DNA of 32,000 nt from Halorhodospira halophila SL1 (GTDB lineage: Bacteria; Pseudomonadota; Gammaproteobacteria; Nitrococcales; Halorhodospiraceae). Where the stretch lies: NCBI RefSeq assembly GCF_000015585.1, contig NC_008789.1:1170001-1202000 (forward strand). Direction: 5' to 3'. The notes under the pieces are model-generated. The model saw only the letters and a list, made by a program, of their open reading frames with translations, was not told the DNA's origin and made no database searches. A program made the position numbers and the translations under genes. Shown here one piece after another: positions 2,811 to 31,334 of the stretch. Numbering within the stretch: position 1 is the stretch's first letter; every line of letters begins with the position of its first letter.

Positions 2811-3826
2811 GCTCGCACGCACCCATGGCGCAACCGACCGTCGGCGCCGACGAGGCCCTGCTCCGGGTCGACGGCCTCTACACCCACTTCGAGCTGCGTC
2901 AGTGGGGCTTCCTGCGTACCGGCACGGTACACGCCGTCGACGGCGTCACCTTCACCCTGGACGCCGGGGAGGCCGTCGCTGTGGTGGGCGAGAGCGGCTG
3001 CGGCAAGAGTTCGCTGGCGCGCACCCTGCTCGCTCTCCACCGGCCCACCGCGGGCTCGGTGCGTTTTGCCGGTACCGAGCTGGGTGCGCTCAACGGCGCG
3101 GCCCTCAAGGCGTACCGGGCCCAGGTCGGCTATGTCCAACAGGATCCCTACGGGGCCCTGCCACCGTTCATGGAGGTGAAGCGGATTCTAGCCGAGCCGC
3201 TGATCATCCACGGCGTTCGCCCGCGGGCCGAGCGCTGGCGGCGGATCAAGGCGGCCCTGGAGGAGGTCGGCCTGACACCGGCGGCCGACGTTGCCGCGAA
3301 GTTTCCCCACCAGCTCAGCGGCGGGCAGCAGCAGCGTGTGGTCATCGCCCGCGCCCTGCTGCTGCGCCCGGCGATGATCATCGCCGACGAGCCCGTCTCC
3401 ATGCTCGACGCTTCGGTGCGGGTGGAGATCCTCAACCTGCTCCATCGCATCCAGCAGGAGCACCGGCTGGCCCTGCTCTACATCACCCACGACCTCTCCA
3501 CGGTCCGCCACTACGTGGACCGAGCCATGGTGATGTACGGCGGACGGATCATCGAACAGGCGCCGGTGGGCGCGCTGCTCCAGCGCCCGCAGCACCCGTA
3601 TACCGAGGCCCTGCTCAGCGCGCTCGGGGATCCCGACGCCGCTAACGCCGGACGGCCGCGCCCGGTCCCCGGGGGCGAGGCCCCGAGCCTGATCCAGCCA
3701 CCCTCCGGCTGCCGCTACCATCCACGCTGTCCGTACGCCATGGTCAACCGCTGCGAGCTGGACCCGCCGCCCCCGGACTTCCGGCCCCACCCGGAGCACC
3801 GCGCCGCCTGCTGGCTGCGCGAGTAG
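2807..3826 (+). CDS. ABC transporter ATP-binding protein, DppF/OppF-like
   Basis: Walker A GESGCGKSS, signature LSGGQQQRV, Walker B IIADEPVSMLD and C-terminal GCRYHPRCPYA. I chose the ATG at 2807 because it forms an ATGA overlap with the upstream stop. The listed ORF start at 2774 is an alternative. Confidence 0.88.
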
Positions 3827-3832
3827 GCCCCG

Positions 3833-4414
3833 ATGCGTGGCGTCGAGCGTATCCCGTGGCTCTATGACACCGGCATGGCCGTCTGCGAGCGCCTGGGCAT
3901 GGGTCGCTGGCGCCAGGCGCTGGTCGACGGGGCCCGGGGTCGGGTCCTGGAGGTGGGGTGCGGGACCGGGCGGACACTGCCACTGTACCCGGCAGGGACC
4001 ACGGTCTGGGGCATCGATCCGGACGCCGCAGCCCTGCGCCGGGCCCGGCGCAGGGCGCCGCAGGCCCCGCTGTGCGTGGGTCGCGCCGAGGCGCTGCCCT
4101 TCCCGGCGGGCCACTTCGACACCGTCACCACCAGCCTGAGCTTCTGCAGCGTGGGGGACGTGGCGGCGGGGCTGGCGGAGATCCGTCGGGTCCTCGACGG
4201 CGACGGGGTGCTGCGCATGCTCGAGCATGTCCGCTCTCCGGGGCTGGCGGGCCGGATCCAGGATCGCATCCAGCCGGCCTGGACCACGCTGAGCGGCGGC
4301 TGCCACTTGAACCGCGATACCGAAGCGGCCGTCCGAGCGGCGGGGTTCCGGATCGACGACGCCTCGCGCCAGGCCCGCGGGGTCATGCGCTGCTTCGCCG
4401 CTTATAAGGTGTAG
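3833..4414 (+). CDS. class I SAM-dependent methyltransferase
   Basis: 193 aa with SAM-binding motif I (VLEVGCGTGR) and a Methyltransf_11-like layout. It starts 7 nt after the ABC ATPase stop. Confidence 0.75.
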   Translation: MRGVERIPWLYDTGMAVCERLGMGRWRQALVDGARGRVLEVGCGTGRTLPLYPAGTTVWGIDPDAAALRRARRRAPQAPLCVGRAEALPFPAGHFDTVTTSLSFCSVGDVAAGLAEIRRVLDGDGVLRMLEHVRSPGLAGRIQDRIQPAWTTLSGGCHLNRDTEAAVRAAGFRIDDASRQARGVMRCFAAYKV

Positions 4415-4417
4415 CCA

Positions 4418-4687
4418 TCACTGCGGGCGCAGCCGCTGCCACAGATCGGCCAGGTGCGCCGCCAACCCCGCCAGCAGCCACGCCGAGACCCAGTACCAGG
4501 CGGCATCGGTCAGCGCCGCGCGCAGCGCCAGCAGCAGAAAGCCACCCGCCGCCAGCGTGGTCACCAGGGTCCCCGGGGCCAGCCCCCACCCGCTACGCCG
4601 GTAAACCAGATAGAGGAGCGCCCCCTCGAGGACCATCAGCAGCAGGATGGCGTCGATGATCCGGCCGGTGTCGAACAGTTCAACCAT
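4418..4687 (-). CDS. small hydrophobic membrane protein, function unknown
   Basis: 89 aa, about three predicted TM helices and Trp/Arg-flanked segments. It starts 9 nt downstream of the patatin-like gene stop on the same strand. I recognise no family. Confidence 0.5.
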   Translation of the reverse strand: MVELFDTGRIIDAILLLMVLEGALLYLVYRRSGWGLAPGTLVTTLAAGGFLLLALRAALTDAAWYWVSAWLLAGLAAHLADLWQRLRPQ

Positions 4688-4696
4688 CGGCCCGCA

Positions 4697-5620
4697 TCAC
4701 CACTGGTCGAGCAGCTCGCGCAGCTCGTCTTGCAGGGCATCGACCTCGGACTGCGCCTGCTCGAGGATGGTGTCCACCTTGTGGAAGTCGAGCACGCGGA
4801 TATCGCGGATCTCCGGGCTGATGAGAATATCCGGCGCCTCGCGCCGTCTCTTCTCTTGCAGGATCGAGTACTGCATGATCTGGAAGGTGTTGAAGATGTT
4901 GTCCAGATAGGCGGGATTGTTCAGGGTTTCGCCCCCGCCCTCCTCGCGACTGCCGAGCACGTTCACCGCCACGACCACATCACAATCCTCGCTAAGCAGA
5001 TCGAAGGGCACCGGATTGGTCAGCCCGCCATCCACCAGCACGCGGTCGCGGTAGGACACCGGGCTGAACAGCCCGGGCATCGCCATGCTCGCCTGCACCG
5101 CTGGCCAGAGCGCCCCGGCGTCGAAGACCACCGCCTCACGCTCCCAGTAGTCGGTGGCCACCACCTGCAGCGGGATCTCGAGTTCACCGAAGCGCGATAC
5201 ACCGGTCTTTTTACGCAGGTGAGCGATAAAGGCGTCGGACTCTACCAGCCCGCCGTCGCGCCCGGACGGCTGCACGAAGTCCAGCCACTGTCGCCACTTG
5301 CCGCCCATCAGGGTCCGCAGCCAGTTCTCGTCCTGATCGGCGACGAGTTCGTCGATCCCCGCGCGGATCTCTTCGGCGCTCAGGCCGGCCGCGTAGAGCG
5401 CGCCCATGATGGCGCCGATGCTGCAGCCACTGATCCGGTGCGGCCGCACACCGAGTTCCTCGAGGGCCTCGAAGACCAGCAGGTGGGACAGGCCGCGGGC
5501 CCCGCCACTGCCCAGCGCCAGGCCAATACGCGGCCCGCCCTCCCCTTCGGCGGCCCGGGCACCGGAGAGGGGGGCCGCCGACATCCCCACCAGCGGCAAC
5601 ATGGATGCGCTGACCATCAT
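4697..5620 (-). CDS. patatin-like phospholipase (RssA/YchK-like), probable signal peptide
   Basis: Oxyanion motif GSGGARG, nucleophile elbow GCSIG (GxSxG) and catalytic Asp motif VDGGL. I chose the start at ATGATG (5620). That gives the hydrophobic N-terminus MMVSASMLPLVGMSAAPLSGARA. The listed ORF extends to 5803 and would overlap the upstream gene. Confidence 0.85.
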   Translation of the reverse strand: MMVSASMLPLVGMSAAPLSGARAAEGEGGPRIGLALGSGGARGLSHLLVFEALEELGVRPHRISGCSIGAIMGALYAAGLSAEEIRAGIDELVADQDENWLRTLMGGKWRQWLDFVQPSGRDGGLVESDAFIAHLRKKTGVSRFGELEIPLQVVATDYWEREAVVFDAGALWPAVQASMAMPGLFSPVSYRDRVLVDGGLTNPVPFDLLSEDCDVVVAVNVLGSREEGGGETLNNPAYLDNIFNTFQIMQYSILQEKRRREAPDILISPEIRDIRVLDFHKVDTILEQAQSEVDALQDELRELLDQW

Positions 5621-17769: not shown

Positions 17770-18234
17770 TCACACGGGGCCAGCGGGCCTCGGCGGCGCT
17801 TCCAGCCAGAAGGTCACCGGGCCGTCATTGACCAACTCGACCTGCATGTCCGCCCCGAACACGCCACTGGCCACGGGGCCCGTGGCCCGCTCGCGCAGGG
17901 CCTCAAGGAAGGTCTCGAACAGCGCCTGGCCGGTCTGCGGATCGGCCGCGGGGCCAAAGCTCGGTCGCATGCCCTTGCGGGTATCCGCAGCCAGCGTGAA
18001 TTGCGGTACGGCCAGCACGCCGCACCCGAGATCGAGGGCGGAGCCATTCATACGCCCCTCGGCATCCGGGAAGACCCGGTAGCCGAGCACCCGCTCGGCC
18101 AGGCGCTGGGCCTGCGCCGAACCATCGCCGTGAACGGCGCAGACCAGCGCCACCAGGCCACGCTCGATCTCGCCAACGACCTCGCCACCAACCCGAACCC
18201 GGGCACTGCCTGTACGTTGAATAACGGTGATCAT
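17770..18234 (-). CDS. dtd: D-aminoacyl-tRNA deacylase
   Basis: 154 aa. MITVIQR...GEI..GL and the C-terminal NDGPVTFWL match Dtd. Confidence 0.9.
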
Positions 18235-18319
18235 CGCGAGAGATATAGGATTTTTCTTACAAGCACTCCGGCACCCCCTGATTCCCCCGCCACCGGCGGT
18301 GAGGCATTGTAAACCTCGG

Positions 18320-18498
18320 CTACCGGCAATCGAATCCCTGTCGCTTACCGGAAGAGCGCAGTCGATTGTGCGGGAGCCTGGATGGGGCGAGGGATCGCTC
18401 GGCCTTCAGGGACCGCTCACGGAAGAGTAAGGCCCCCATCCAAACGGCCCGAGGGAAGCGGGTTAAAGCCGACGCAGGACGCGTCGGCTTTTTTTTTT
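18320..18498 (+). ncRNA. candidate CsrB/Rsm-like GGA-repeat sRNA (5' end not determined)
   Basis: No credible plus-strand CDS exists here, yet a strong plus-strand intrinsic terminator ends the region. There are 8 GGA motifs at 18350-18479 against 1 TCC. GGA sits in the loops of hairpins at 18326-18369, 18385-18400 and 18448-18462, and in the terminator loop. The 8-mer CGGAAGAG is repeated at 18349-18356 and 18420-18427. Confidence 0.4.
18468..18498 (+). terminator. Rho-independent terminator, plus-strand polarity
   Basis: Stem gccgacgc (18468-18475), loop aggac, stem gcgtcggc (18481-18488), then a run of 10 T (18489-18498). On the minus strand only UUU follows the stem, so it is much weaker for the convergent phasin-like gene. 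Confidence 0.7.
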
Positions 18499-18507
18499 GC
18501 CGGGCCG

Positions 18508-19053
18508 TCAGGCCTTCTTGGTACCGCCCGAGGTGCTGCTGCGCCCCGCGGATGACTTCTGCTGCCCACTGCCGCCCGTGGCCGCCACGCCGGAGAGCTC
18601 CTGCATCGCCTCCTGGGCCCGCTTGGTCGCATCCTGCCAGGCCTTGAGCACGCGCTGCCCCTCCGAGTCCCACTGCTCCGCCATGCGGGACGGATCCATA
18701 TTCTTCACGCTGTCGAACCAGGCATTCCAGAGCTTGCTCTGCGCCTCGGTCCACGACTTCATCATCTCTTGGGTCTGTTTGACCGCCTCCTGCATACCCT
18801 CGCTGGCGTTCTCGCCGGCACCGGCCTGCTGCGCCCACTTCTGGGCCCACTGAACCTGGGCGTCGAGGGCCTCTCGGACCGCTTTCTCCCAGGCCTCCAG
18901 GTTCTGCTGATAGTGCTGCTGCCAGTCATCCGCCTGGGAGACACCGGTGGGCATTTGCATGCCGCGCACCGTTTGCAGCCACGTATCCCACATGCGCTGC
19001 TGCATCTCAGTCCAGTTCCGGACCATCTCTTCCATCGGCTGGTTGCCGCTCAT
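18508..19053 (-). CDS. Trp-rich, internally duplicated PhaE-N-terminal/phasin-like protein (function tentative)
   Basis: 181 aa with 12 Trp. Two homologous half-repeats are visible (aa ~14-66 WTEMQQRMWDTW..., aa ~101-151 WTEAQSKLWNAW...), and the C-terminal tail is Ser/Gly/Lys-rich. As I recall, the W-x-E-x-Q-x-x-x-W-D/N-x-W pattern resembles the N-terminus of class III PHA synthase subunit PhaE. A strong SD region precedes the ATG. Confidence 0.55.
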   Translation of the reverse strand: MSGNQPMEEMVRNWTEMQQRMWDTWLQTVRGMQMPTGVSQADDWQQHYQQNLEAWEKAVREALDAQVQWAQKWAQQAGAGENASEGMQEAVKQTQEMMKSWTEAQSKLWNAWFDSVKNMDPSRMAEQWDSEGQRVLKAWQDATKRAQEAMQELSGVAATGGSGQQKSSAGRSSTSGGTKKA

Positions 19054-19089
19054 AGCGATCCTCTCCTGACGTCCTGTTGAAAAAACCCG

Positions 19090-27579: not shown

Positions 27580-29013
27580 TCAGCCCCGACTCGCCACCAC
27601 CTGCCGGTACAGGTCCTGATACGCCTGCGCCGAGGCCGCCCACGAGTACGTACCGGCCATGCCCCGGGCCTGGATGGCGTGCCAGGTCGGGCGGTCCTGC
27701 CAATGCGCCAGGGCCCGCTCCACCGCTGCGGCCAGGGCAGCGCCGTCGGAGGCCGCCAGGTGGAAGCCGTTCCCGCTTTGCGGATGGGCATCCACATCCA
27801 CCACCGTGTCCGCCAGCCCGCCGGTGGGGTAGACCACCGGCGGCGTGCCGTAGCGCAGGGAGTAGAGCTGATTGAGCCCACACGGCTCGAAGCGCGACGG
27901 CATCAGGAACAGGTCACTGCCGGCCTCGATCTGGTGGGCCAGGGCCTCGTCGTAGCCAATCACCACGCCGACCTGCCCCGGGTGCTGCTCGGCGGCGGCG
28001 CGCAGCGCCGTCTCCAGCCGGTGATCCCCGGCGCCCAACAAGGCCAGCTGCGCCCCGGCGGCCAGCAGCCGCGGCAGCGCCGCCAGGATCAGATCCACAC
28101 CCTTCTGCTCCACCAGCCGCCCGACGAACCCGAGGATCGGCCCCTCGCCCTCGCTCAGGCCGACCGCCCGGGCCACCGCCCGGCGGTTGGCGGCCCGCGC
28201 CCGGTCGTCCGGGCCGGTATACTGGGCAACCAGATGCCGGTCGCTGCCGGGATCCCAGGTGGCGGTATCGATGCCGTTGACGATCCCGAACAATCGATCC
28301 CGCCGGTGGTGGAGCAGTCCGTCCAGCCCCCAGCCGAAGGCCGGCGTCTGAATCTCCCGGGCGTAGGTGGGGCTGACGGTGACCAGGGTGTCGGCGAAGA
28401 CCAGCGACCCCTTGATGAAGGCCAGCTGGCCGTAGAACTCCAGTCCCTCGGGCTGCCACAGCTCCGCGGGCAGCCCCAGCCGCGGGTAGAGCTCCGCCGG
28501 GAAGAGCCCGCGGTAGGCCAGGTTGTGGATGCCGAAGACGGTTGCGGGCCGGTCGGCCCGGTCGCGCAGGAAGACCGGCGCCAGCGCCGTCTGCCAGTCG
28601 TTGCCGTGGAGCACCTCGGCCCGCCAGTCCAGCAGATCCCCCGCCGCCAGGGCGGCGGCCACCTGCGACAGGCGGAGGAAGCGCCAGTGGTTGTCCGGCC
28701 AGGCGTCGCCCCCGGCGGTGGCGTAGGGCCCGCCGACCCGGGCGAAGAGCGGCGGGTCGTCGAGCAGCCAGACGCCGACCCCGGTGCCGGGCAGCCGGCC
28801 CTCGATCAGCGTCACACCCTCTCCGGCCAGCTCTGCGGTGTGCCGGCGGACCTCGCCCTCGAGCTGCTCGACGGTCCCCGGGTAGGCCGGCATCAGCAGG
28901 CGCACGTCGCAGTCGAGCTCAGCCAGGGCCCGAGTCAGGCCGAAGGCCACATCGCCCAGGCCGCCCGTCTTGGCCAGGGGCCACGCCTCGGCGGTGGCGA
29001 AGAGGACCCTCAC
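27580..29013 (-). CDS. glgA: glycogen synthase (ADP-glucose type)
   Basis: The homology begins at (M)[21 protein letters not shown] with the KTGGLGDV motif. The GTG start at 29011-29013 forms a GTGA overlap with the glgB stop, giving 477 aa. The listed ORF start at 29307 adds 98 non-homologous residues inside glgB. Confidence 0.93.
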
Positions 29014-31199
29014 GCCCCCTCCCCGACCAGCACCAGGCCGGCCAGCGGTGGCAGGGTCAGGGTCACTGAGTAGGGGTAGCCACTCCACGGCACCGGCTCG
29101 GCGAGCACACCGCCGGCATTGCCCAGGTCCGATCCGCCGTAGTAAGCCGAGTCGGTGTTCATCCGCTCTGTCCAGCGCCCGGGGGCCGGCACGCCCAGCC
29201 GGTGGCCGTGGCGGGGGACCGGCGTAAAGTTCAGGACCACCAGCGCCTGCTCCCCGGCATCGCCGCGGCGCAGGTAGCTGAGTACCGACTGCTCGGCGTC
29301 GTGGCAATCCACCCAGGCGAAACCCGCCTCGGCGAAGTCGTAGCGGTGGAGGGCCGGCACGCCACGGTAGAGCGCATTGAGATCACTGACCAGACGCTGC
29401 ACGCCGGCGTGGCGCGGGTCGGACAGGGCCGCCCAGTCCACCGTGGCATCGGCGTCCCACTCGCTGCGCTGGCCGATCTCGCAGCCCATGAACAGCAGCT
29501 TCTTGCCCGGGTAGGTGAACTGGTAGGCGTAGAGCAGGCGCAGGTTCGCCAGGCGCTGCCAGTCGTCGCCGGGCATGCGGTCGAGCAGGCTGCCCTTGCC
29601 GTGGACCACCTCGTCGTGACTGAACGGCAGGACGAAGTTCTCGGTAAAGGCGTAGAGCAGGCCGAAGGTCAGCTGGTCGTGGTGGTAGCGGCGATGGACG
29701 GGGTCCTCGCCGAGGTAGGTCAGGGTGTCGTGCATCCAGCCCATGTTCCACTTCATGGTGAACCCCAACCCACCGAGGTAGGTGGGCCGCGTGACCTGGG
29801 GCCAGGAGGTGGACTCCTCGGCGATGATGCAGGTCCCCGGCTGCTCGCCGTGGGTGACGGTGTTCACCTCGCGCAGGAAGGCAATGGCCTCCAGGTTCTC
29901 GTTGCCGCCGTGGATGTTCGGCACCCAGTCCCCGTCTTCGCGGGAGTAGTTCAGGTAGAGCATCGAGGCGACCGCATCCACCCGGAGCCCGTCCAGGTGG
30001 TAGGCCTCCAGCCAGTAGAGGGCGCTGGAGAGCAGGAAGCTGCGCACCTCGTTACGACCGAAGTTGAAGATCAGCGTCCCCCAGTCGCGGTGCTCGCCCT
30101 GCCGGGGATCAGCGTGCTCGTAGAGCGGCGTACCGTCGAAACGGGCCAGGGCCCATGCGTCCCGGGGAAAGTGAGCCGGTACCCAGTCCAGGATCACGCC
30201 GATACCGTGGCGGTGGCAGTAGTCCACGAAGTAGCGAAACGCGTCCGGCTCGCCGAACCGACTGGTCGGGGCGAAGTAGCCGGTGGCCTGATACCCCCAG
30301 GAGTCGTCCAACGGGTGCTCAGTGATCGGCAGCAGCTCGATGTGGGTGAAGCCCGTGCGCTGGACGTAGTCGACCAGCTCGTGGGCCAGGGTGCGGTAGT
30401 CGAGGAACCCCCCCCCGACATCCCGCTGCCAGGAGCCCAGATGCACCTCGTAGATCGACCACGGTGCCTGCTGCCAGGCGCTCCCCTCGCGCCGGCGGCG
30501 CTCCATCCACGCATCATCCCCCCAGGGGTAGGCCTCGGGCGGCTCCACCACGGCGGCGGTCTCGGGCCGGTGCTGGTAGCGCCGGCCACAGGGGTCGGTC
30601 TTGAGCAGCGGCCCGCAGCCGCCGGCTCCCCGCAGCTCAAACTTGTACAGGGCCCCCGGCTCCACCCCGGGGATAAACAGCTCCCAGACCCCGGCCTCCA
30701 GGCGCAGGCGCATGGGGTGGCGGCGCCCATCCCAGCGATTGAAATCCCCCACCACGCTGACCCGCTCGGCGTTGGGCGCCCAAACCGAAAAGACCACGCC
30801 TGCCACCCCGTCAACCGTGGTGCAGTGCGCCCCCAGGAAGCGCTGAGCGTGCCAGTGCCGCCCCTCGGCGTAGAGGTGCAGGTCGAACTCCGAGAGCACC
30901 GGCGGGAAGGCGTAAGGGTCGTAGGCGGTGTGCCAGGCACCCCCGGCATCCCGCCAGCAGACCTGGTACGGCGCCTCAAGGGCCTCGGGCAGCGGCGCCT
31001 CGAAGAAGTCGGTGCCGGCAACGCGCGGCACCTCGGTGCCCTCGCTAAAGGCCACTGCCGCCGCCTCCGGGTGGTAGATGCGCACCCGCCGGCTCGGGCC
31101 GTGGGGGCCGCCGAGGTAGGCGAAGGGATCCGAGTGGCGCCCCTCGGCGATCCGCTGGCGCTCTTCGGCCTCGGCGCGCTGTTGGCTAACGCGATTCAA
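29010..31199 (-). CDS. glgB: 1,4-alpha-glucan branching enzyme
   Basis: GH13 catalytic segments [20 protein letters not shown] and [12 protein letters not shown]. The N-terminal HSDPFAYLG aligns with E. coli HFADPFSVLG. I prefer the TTG start at 31199 because a GGAGG sits 6 nt upstream and the resulting N-terminal length is E. coli-like. The ATG at 31256 is the alternative and has no SD. Confidence 0.92.
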
Positions 31200-31334
31200 G
31201 CCTGACCTCCGCTCAGGCGCCGCTGCGGTGCCGCTCGCCCCGGATGGGCCGCCCATCGGTGGTGAATACCCTGTCGATCCGCGGAAAAGGCGTCCATACT
31301 GCTCCCAAAGCCCCAGTTGTCAGGAAGACCCGAC

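Follow-up and report, generated by a model that had tools for sequence, protein, structure and literature searches.

The DNA considered here is a 32-kb window from Halorhodospira halophila SL1 (G+C content, 69%), and coordinates given without a locus handle are positions in that window. Within it, the 273-bp gap (18235–18507) between dtd, the gene for D-aminoacyl-tRNA deacylase, and a phasin-like gene probably encodes a small noncoding RNA of the Csr/Rsm type, i.e., a sponge for the protein CsrA (RsmA). To one side of the gap lies dtd (17770–18234, minus strand; Pfam PF02580 Tyr_Deacylase, E 1.8e-50), which is divergent to the predicted RNA gene, and to the other side lies the phasin-like gene (18508–19053, minus strand), which is convergent to it. 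These coordinates agree with those of a first-pass annotation, made from the sequence alone, that had described the same gap between two minus-strand genes and had proposed a Csr/Rsm-type sponge in it. The phasin-like product is 100% identical to H. halophila protein P0003, which carries the UniRef name “Phasin domain-containing protein”; a Pfam search with the window’s protein returned no match. The annotation had also seen no plausible plus-strand protein gene in the gap. An open reading frame (ORF) does span 18227–18430 and is kept only in the closest relative, and a search for a conserved plus-strand ORF across the homologues found none beyond that relative. A protein-coding reading of the gap was ruled out on this basis.

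The predicted RNA is ~182 nt long and occupies 18317–18498 of the plus strand, with a predicted 5′ end placed to within ±3 nt and a 3′ end that falls within the T-run of an intrinsic terminator. Its consensus structure consists of four domains. The first, P1 (18318–18378), is a long hairpin with the apical loop ACCGGAA, which displays a GGA at 18350–18352. The second, P2 (18379–18442), is a multi-branch domain closed by a long-range helix (18379–18386/18435–18442). It contains the hairpin P2a (GCGA-GGGA-UCGC, 18387–18398; GGA 18392–18394) and the stem P2b (18401–18406/18429–18434), within which two further GGA (18410–18412 and 18421–18423) are mostly unpaired. The third, P3 (18446–18464), is the hairpin GGCCCG-AGGGAAG-CGGGUU, in which the GGA at 18454–18456 has an unpaired probability of 1.0. 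The fourth is the terminator (18465–18498), with an 11-bp stem, the loop AGGAC (GGA 18477–18479), and a run of ten T residues.

A terminator scan reported a single plus-strand site, AAAGCCGACGC-AGGAC-GCGTCGGCTTT at 18465–18491, with 11 pairs, seven of them G-C. The T-run follows at 18489–18498, and 9 nt separate the terminator from the stop codon of the phasin gene, which is convergent. The first-pass annotation had described the same terminator with an 8-bp GC stem, and the scan extends that stem to 11 pairs. The minimum-free-energy fold of the RNA region is more stable than those of shuffled sequences (z = −3.4) and includes every hairpin that had been picked out in the first-pass annotation. 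It also includes the long-range helix of P2, which had been listed as possible and which turned out to be the best supported of the helices, with compensatory changes in five of six pairs.

This support comes from close relatives, whose loci have the same gene order and were gathered by scanning genomes and metagenomes for the phasin protein, supplemented by exact-protein look-ups. Five distinct relatives of the Halorhodospira clade possess an alignable dtd–phasin gap of 269–298 nt with a homologous element of ~180 nt. They are L009; L001 (the same as L010/L011); L021 (the same as L020 minus an intron); L004 (the same as L013); and L005, from H. neutriphila. An RNAalifold consensus was derived from six RNAs, namely that of the window and those of the five relatives. 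On this consensus, 87% of the cells form pairs, versus 34–46% if the 3′ partners are slid by 1–3 columns, and double-sided changes are present in 15 of 57 pairs, versus 3–6 in the slid controls. In a shuffle control, four of the five measures had observed values that none of 500 shuffles reached.

The degree of change varies with the domain. For instance, the P1 stem (helices 1–2) shows compensatory and G-U changes around a loop GGA that is invariant in all six homologues, and the stem of the terminator (helix 9) is itself invariant across the six. The P3 hairpin has the same sequence in four homologues, and the other two keep a GGA-containing loop. An alignment of orthologous gaps had been suggested as a check on the element, and across the six homologues it shows both retention of the GGA loops and compensatory changes in the stems. 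A covariance model built from the six RNAs finds full-length matches only at this site (202.8 bits) and in the same gap of relatives. A repeat or mobile-element reading was ruled out, as the full-length matches of the model are limited to a single copy in each locus and are confined to the dtd–phasin gap.

In principle, the conserved structure could belong to the other strand. There would then be no independent gene in the gap: the fold would be part of a minus-strand phasin 3′ untranslated region and/or a dtd leader, and the hairpin, 9 nt past the phasin stop codon, would be the phasin terminator. The dtd and phasin genes both run on the minus strand, no promoter or Shine-Dalgarno sequence is visible for dtd, and the hairpin survives alone in two relatives (L014 and L022). 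In relatives without the element, moreover, the phasin–dtd spacing is 19–89 nt, which is consistent with co-transcription. Four independent lines favour the plus strand instead. First, the consensus structure contains 30 G-U cells that become A-C mismatches on the minus strand, versus 8 A-C cells the opposite way. Second, the consensus fold of the plus strand has an energy of −55.9 kcal/mol and 57 pairs, whereas that of the minus strand is 12 kcal/mol weaker, at −43.7 kcal/mol and 51 pairs. Third, the hairpin is followed by T6–T10 on the plus strand in every homologue, whereas the minus strand offers only TTT or TTC before other bases intervene.

The fourth line comes from a group II intron. 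In L020, such an intron (3124–5055, minus strand of that locus) sits directly after the T-tract in the orientation of the RNA, and another is found in this position at the end of the L003 contig. The L020 intron is identified through Rfam models RF02001, RF00029, and RF01998 and through a reverse-transcriptase/maturase ORF (3195–4574); L021 is otherwise identical to L020 and is without the intron. Among bacterial group II introns, some home to sites right behind intrinsic terminators and in the same orientation, and the placement of this one suggests that the terminator functions on the plus strand. The upstream box and −10 architecture described below likewise faces the plus strand. On the strength of the G-U counts, fold energies, and T-tracts, the minus-strand reading was rejected, and we consider it very unlikely.

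In the 130 nt from 18350 to 18479, there are eight GGA versus one TCC on the plus strand, which bears out the asymmetry reported in the first-pass annotation. That annotation had roughly expected 2–3 GGA; the measured window mean is 2.1 per 130 nt, and just 0.1% of 130-nt windows reach eight. Motifs of the AGGA/ARGGA type number five within 90 nt, which ties the plus-strand maximum of the window. The sole other plus-strand place with five per 90 nt is at ~24.4 kb, inside a coding ORF that is taken from its context to be rpoD. Six of the eight GGA of the element are in loops or otherwise unpaired.

Conservation singles out the exposed triplets. Six GGA sites are common to all six RNAs: four are in the loops of P1, P2a, P3, and the terminator, and two are in the interior of P2b. 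The unpaired probability of these conserved sites is mostly 0.7–1.0. Among unpaired alignment columns, GGA is the only invariant trinucleotide and is so at three sites, while the other three GGA sites are kept with small shifts. Within P2, for example, the GGA at 18392 and the one at 18410 occupy invariant columns, and that at 18421 is kept with a small shift. Of the six conserved GGA, four fit the context A(N)GGA; a fifth, that of the terminator loop, is part of AGGA. An exact repeat that the first-pass annotation had pointed out, CGGAAGAG, is indeed present; CGCT, which had been placed directly before each copy, is instead found 2–3 nt upstream.

Near the dtd end of the gap is an inverted repeat, TATAGGatttttCTTACA (18244–18261, no strand assigned), that resembles the box recognized by GacA/UvrY response regulators and is a putative upstream activating sequence. 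Scored against TGTAAGN6CTTACA, the window sequence TATAGGATTTTTCTTACA agrees at 10 of 12 positions, as had been claimed, and is the only match with two or fewer mismatches on either strand of the 32 kb. By chance, 0.09 such boxes would be expected, and at least one match occurred in 8 of 100 shuffles. The UvrY/GacA consensus has been given as TGTAAGNNNNNNCTTACA, an 18-nt inverted repeat (PMC4682653), and a functional GacA site upstream of rsmX in Pseudomonas brassicacearum reads TATAGCGAAACGCTTACA (PMC7911923). The left half of the window box, TATAG, is the same as that of this rsmX site. Relatives carry boxes in the same place, with matches that reach 11/12 and 12/12. Among the close loci, L009 scores 11/12 and L001, L021, and L005 score 9/12 each. 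The box is only 9–10 nt from the dtd ATG, and this position is kept in five of six Halorhodospira-clade homologues.

At a fixed distance from the box is a −10-like hexamer, CATTGT (18305–18310, plus strand), which fits the pattern CAnnnT, is preceded by GG, and begins 44 nt after the box. The same arrangement of box, 44-nt spacer (43 nt in L009), and CAnnnT recurs in nine of ten lineages, the exception being L004. The hexamer, which again follows GG in these close relatives, varies within the pattern: the window and L009 have CATTGT, L001 has CACTGT, and L021 and L005 have CATCGT. The first RNA helix starts ~7 nt past the hexamer, a spacing that places the start of transcription near 18317 and the centre of the box at about −65. 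CATTGT is a candidate promoter element, and the box is a predicted binding site for GacA/UvrY. Five of the six promoters of the Halorhodospira type keep a further motif, CTGAT (18278–18282), which lies ~35–39 nt before the predicted start. Its spacing of ~20 nt to the −10 makes it a poor candidate for a −35 element.

More distant genomes, in which the phasin is 45–53% identical to that of the window, also hold an RNA in the same dtd–phasin gap. These RNAs could not be aligned with the window RNA by MAFFT or nhmmer. The promoter architecture is nevertheless the same. L025/L026 (a metagenome assembly) has the box TGTAAGaaaattCTTACA and L029/L030 (Aquisalimonas sp.) the box TGTAAGaaaatgCTTACA, each a 12/12 match, while two further metagenome assemblies, L031/L032 and L034, have CGTAAGaatattCTTACA and TGTCAGaatattCTTACA, respectively, each at 11/12. 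Forty-four nucleotides past these boxes are CAAGAT (L025), CAAGCT (L029), CAAAAT (L031), and CACGAT (L034). The exact core GTAAGN6CTTAC, when 32 loci were compared, was found only in this gap, at L025/L026, L029/L030, and L031/L032.

The RNAs that follow have much in common as well. Those of L025, L029, L031, and L034 are 172–188 nt long and contain 6–9 GGA and 0–3 TCC before a terminator. A GGA is present in the terminator loop of three of the four (CACGGACG, CCAGGGACG, and AGCGGAC); L025, with the loop ACTCGT, is without one. The distant RNAs also share an A-rich linker, AAUAAACAACAGGGA. In L015, an RNA of 221 nt with ten GGA, including one in the terminator loop, follows the phasin gene and is convergent with it, after which the contig ends. 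When the Halorhodospira-type covariance model was applied to these loci, it gave weak full-length matches in L034 (17.4 bits, E 0.0035) and L025 (13.6 bits, E 0.04). Both fall exactly on the predicted RNAs and, with the caveat that the E-values are rough, are consistent with common descent of the near and distant RNAs.

These distant relatives are the strongest evidence for a Csr-type reading, and the perfect GacA boxes among them favour the presence of the pathway in the group. Five features shared by all known CsrA-regulating RNAs were listed by Kulkarni et al. 2006 (PMC1488887): an intergenic location, a high density of AGGA/ARGGA, a rho-independent terminator, the placement of GGA in loops or free regions, and conservation of an upstream site for UvrY/GacA. 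All five are found in the dtd–phasin element, four of them with backing from comparative data, while binding to the box is predicted. We infer from these patterns that the RNA is transcribed and is bound by CsrA. Our estimate is roughly 0.8 that the gap encodes a stand-alone plus-strand noncoding RNA of ~180 nt that acts as a CsrA (RsmA) sponge, and the interpretation offered in the first-pass annotation is supported to that extent.

Such an RNA would be expected to operate as follows. A phosphorylated response regulator of the GacA/UvrY type would bind the inverted repeat at 18244–18261 and switch on a weak promoter (−10 CATTGT, 18305–18310), with transcription starting near 18317. Once folded, the transcript would comprise a long hairpin at the 5′ end, a middle domain with several branches, a short hairpin, and the intrinsic terminator, and the six conserved GGA would be exposed in loops and unpaired stretches. 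CsrA dimers would then occupy the GGA sites and be pulled off the GGA-containing ribosome-binding regions of target mRNAs. With CsrA sequestered, a rise in the RNA would relieve CsrA-mediated control.

Several observations weigh against a CsrA sponge, and the first group of these concerns the known RNA families and the pathway genes. No match to the Rfam Csr/Rsm families was obtained in 18100–18650 at E ≤ 10, where the weak Rfam matches that did appear are generic terminator look-alikes. No Rfam family of any kind reached its gathering score in the gap. Searches at the gathering thresholds likewise gave no Csr/Rsm match in the window, L005, L009, L014, L015, or L020, nor did searches with these families at E ≤ 5 in L025, L029, and L031. 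The only Csr/Rsm trace was RsmY in the distant L015, at 11.9 bits (E 1.3) versus a gathering score of 57. The gathering scores of CsrB, CsrC, RsmX, RsmY, and RsmZ (clan CL00106 and relatives) are not reached. That sequence-based models might miss this RNA had been anticipated in the first-pass annotation, and the searches bear this out. As for the pathway, csrA, gacA/uvrY, and gacS/barA are not found in the window, in the relatives’ loci, or in a left flank of ~8.5 kb, and no gene was detected when E. coli CsrA and P. aeruginosa RsmA served as tblastn queries against the window and all of the loci. Among the best 120 of at least 8000 candidates in a protein search with E. coli CsrA, the named sources are enteric bacteria, insect endosymbionts, and a Beggiatoa metagenome-assembled genome, and none is Halorhodospira. 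In Gammaproteobacteria as a whole, csrA is near-universal. Orthologues of BarA have been reported in the order Chromatiales (PMC8639471). The literature searched, on CsrA, GacA, and small RNAs in Halorhodospira, Ectothiorhodospiraceae, and Chromatiales, has no account of this RNA, nor of any Csr/Rsm or other small RNA of Halorhodospira or its relatives.

Given these negatives, the element could be a genuine plus-strand small RNA that does something other than titrate CsrA, e.g., a base-pairing regulator whose purine-rich loops address CU-rich targets, or a decoy for another protein. The structure, strand, and terminator would fit such an RNA too, CsrA binding is a prediction, and neither an Rfam Csr/Rsm match nor csrA itself was found in the window or loci. 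What is conserved across lineages that no longer align, however, is exactly the Csr signature: many unpaired GGA, often as A(N)GGA, a terminator loop with GGA, and, at a fixed distance, the GacA/UvrY box. From a base-pairing RNA one would expect a single retained seed rather than a 3-nt motif repeated in shifting contexts. A small RNA of this other kind is regarded as unlikely.

A second group of contrary observations concerns the element itself and its distribution. Two of the eight GGA in the window, at 18373 and 18380, are within stems; the former recurs in just two relatives and the latter in none. One more GGA is confined to a 4-nt loop. The box of L004 is degenerate (5/12). A sigma-70 promoter scan of both strands yielded no passing site, and the −10 element is poor. 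A −10 too weak for such a scan is as expected of an activator-dependent promoter, and the promoter assignment consequently derives from cross-lineage conservation. Finally, the element is not in the dtd–phasin gap of L002/L012 (19 nt), L006, from H. abdelmalekii (63 nt), L023 (46 nt, as in L024), or L033 (89 nt), and in L014 and L022 the terminator hairpin is kept alone, its T-tract gone. These last two score 27.7 bits (L014, 3613–3639) and 19.3 bits (L022, 3077–3101) with most GGA sites lost, and they look like gene decay in those lineages.

Loss or degradation in several relatives, along with an imperfect box (10/12), raises the question of whether the element in H. halophila is itself a decaying remnant, or a GGA-rich spacer that arose by chance, with no function now. 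The window sequence, however, keeps the terminator, all six conserved GGA, and every helix intact, and it scores 202.8 bits against the covariance model. In addition, the fold is under purifying selection, as the compensatory changes among its close relatives show. A functionless spacer or remnant is highly improbable on these grounds, and the sponge remains the preferred reading.

Among characterized sponges, the dtd–phasin RNA invites comparison with RsmY, RsmZ, and RsmX of Pseudomonas (RF00195, RF00166, and RF02144). Those RNAs are also stand-alone and of comparable size (about 110–180 nt), with 6–8 GGA in hairpin loops and linkers, one of them in the terminator loop, and with an intrinsic terminator. 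A palindromic GacA activating sequence with the pattern TGTAAGN6CTTACA also precedes their weak promoters, at a distance of some tens of bp. In contrast, they share no detectable sequence or model similarity with the dtd–phasin RNA, which differs in its GC-rich build, long 5′ hairpin, closed multi-branch domain, and genomic context. CsrB and CsrC of Enterobacteria and Vibrio (RF00018 and RF00084) are alike in their inferred mechanism, being BarA-UvrY-activated RNAs with A(N)GGA loops that sequester CsrA and end in an intrinsic terminator, with the same 18-nt inverted repeat as the consensus for UvrY (PMC4682653). Compared with E. coli CsrB, though, the dtd–phasin RNA is about half the size and has six sites versus ~16 motif occurrences (PMC1488887). 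Its box is also closer to the start, at ~65 bp versus ~180 bp in E. coli csrB, where activation is IHF-assisted (PMC4682653). The CsrA-regulating small RNAs predicted by CSRNA_FIND (PMC1488887) resemble it in that the same five sequence properties are present.

Since the element falls outside each of the named Rfam families, it is treated here as a new lineage-specific family within a known functional class. What is new is very probably this RNA family, and what is already known is the class of CsrB/RsmY/RsmZ-type regulators. A sponge RNA is, after all, an expected component of a known pathway and would not surprise a specialist. If the reading is correct, the Gac/Csr pathway extends to the extremely halophilic purple sulfur bacteria (Halorhodospira) and to relatives such as Aquisalimonas, and the family is one that current Rfam models miss. 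It would also provide an example of sequence turnover in which locus, promoter architecture, length, GGA count, and terminator loop are kept while nearly all other sequence is replaced. Such a case could help in building structure- and motif-based searches for RNAs of this kind. With phasin and glycogen genes nearby, the RNA would further offer a handle on the control of carbon storage in these organisms.

The location of the RNA invites a more speculative idea. Its retention beside the gene for phasin, a protein of carbon-storage granules, despite phasin identities of 45–53%, suggests coupling in cis, i.e., a local circuit that would link Csr activity, the formation of storage-polymer granules, and the downstream operon. 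The RNA and phasin genes are convergent and have one hairpin in common. The RNA gene also interrupts what appears in several relatives to be a compact phasin-dtd-hisBHA array (gaps of 19–89 nt), and dtd may be expressed by read-through from the phasin gene across, and antisense to, the small-RNA gene. Were the coupling real, phasin read-through into dtd and the his genes would be opposed by GacA-driven sponge transcription, through collision or an antisense relationship. The phasin leader’s own three GGA around the ribosome-binding site form part of the basis for this idea, which is doubtful overall.

In that leader (19054–19085, minus strand), the three GGA fall within 25 nt of the start codon (caacaGGAcgtcaGGAgaGGAtcgctATG). 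The phasin leaders of L009 and L001 have the same three-GGA arrangement, and most other relatives have GGAGGA. CsrA might target this set, or the triplets may just make up a strong Shine-Dalgarno sequence. The dtd–phasin gap of L027, a low-G+C relative, does not hold the RNA. Its 553-nt gap after dtd (3636–4188, reverse strand) is strongly purine-rich, with 14 GGA and no TCC, and has no obvious hairpins or terminator.

Beyond dtd on the minus strand are hisB, hisH, hisA, and hisF, of which hisH was called from its ORF sequence and position. Beyond the phasin gene are a lipid A acyltransferase gene and then ORFs taken as rpsU, dnaG, and rpoD on the basis of sequence and synteny. Toward its far end, the window holds divergent glycogen genes: glgB (29010–31256, minus strand, assigned by Pfam) and a glgC-like ORF from ~31340 (plus strand, assigned by translation). 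Glycogen genes are classic CsrA targets in E. coli, and the start of the glgC-like ORF is preceded by UCAGGAAG.

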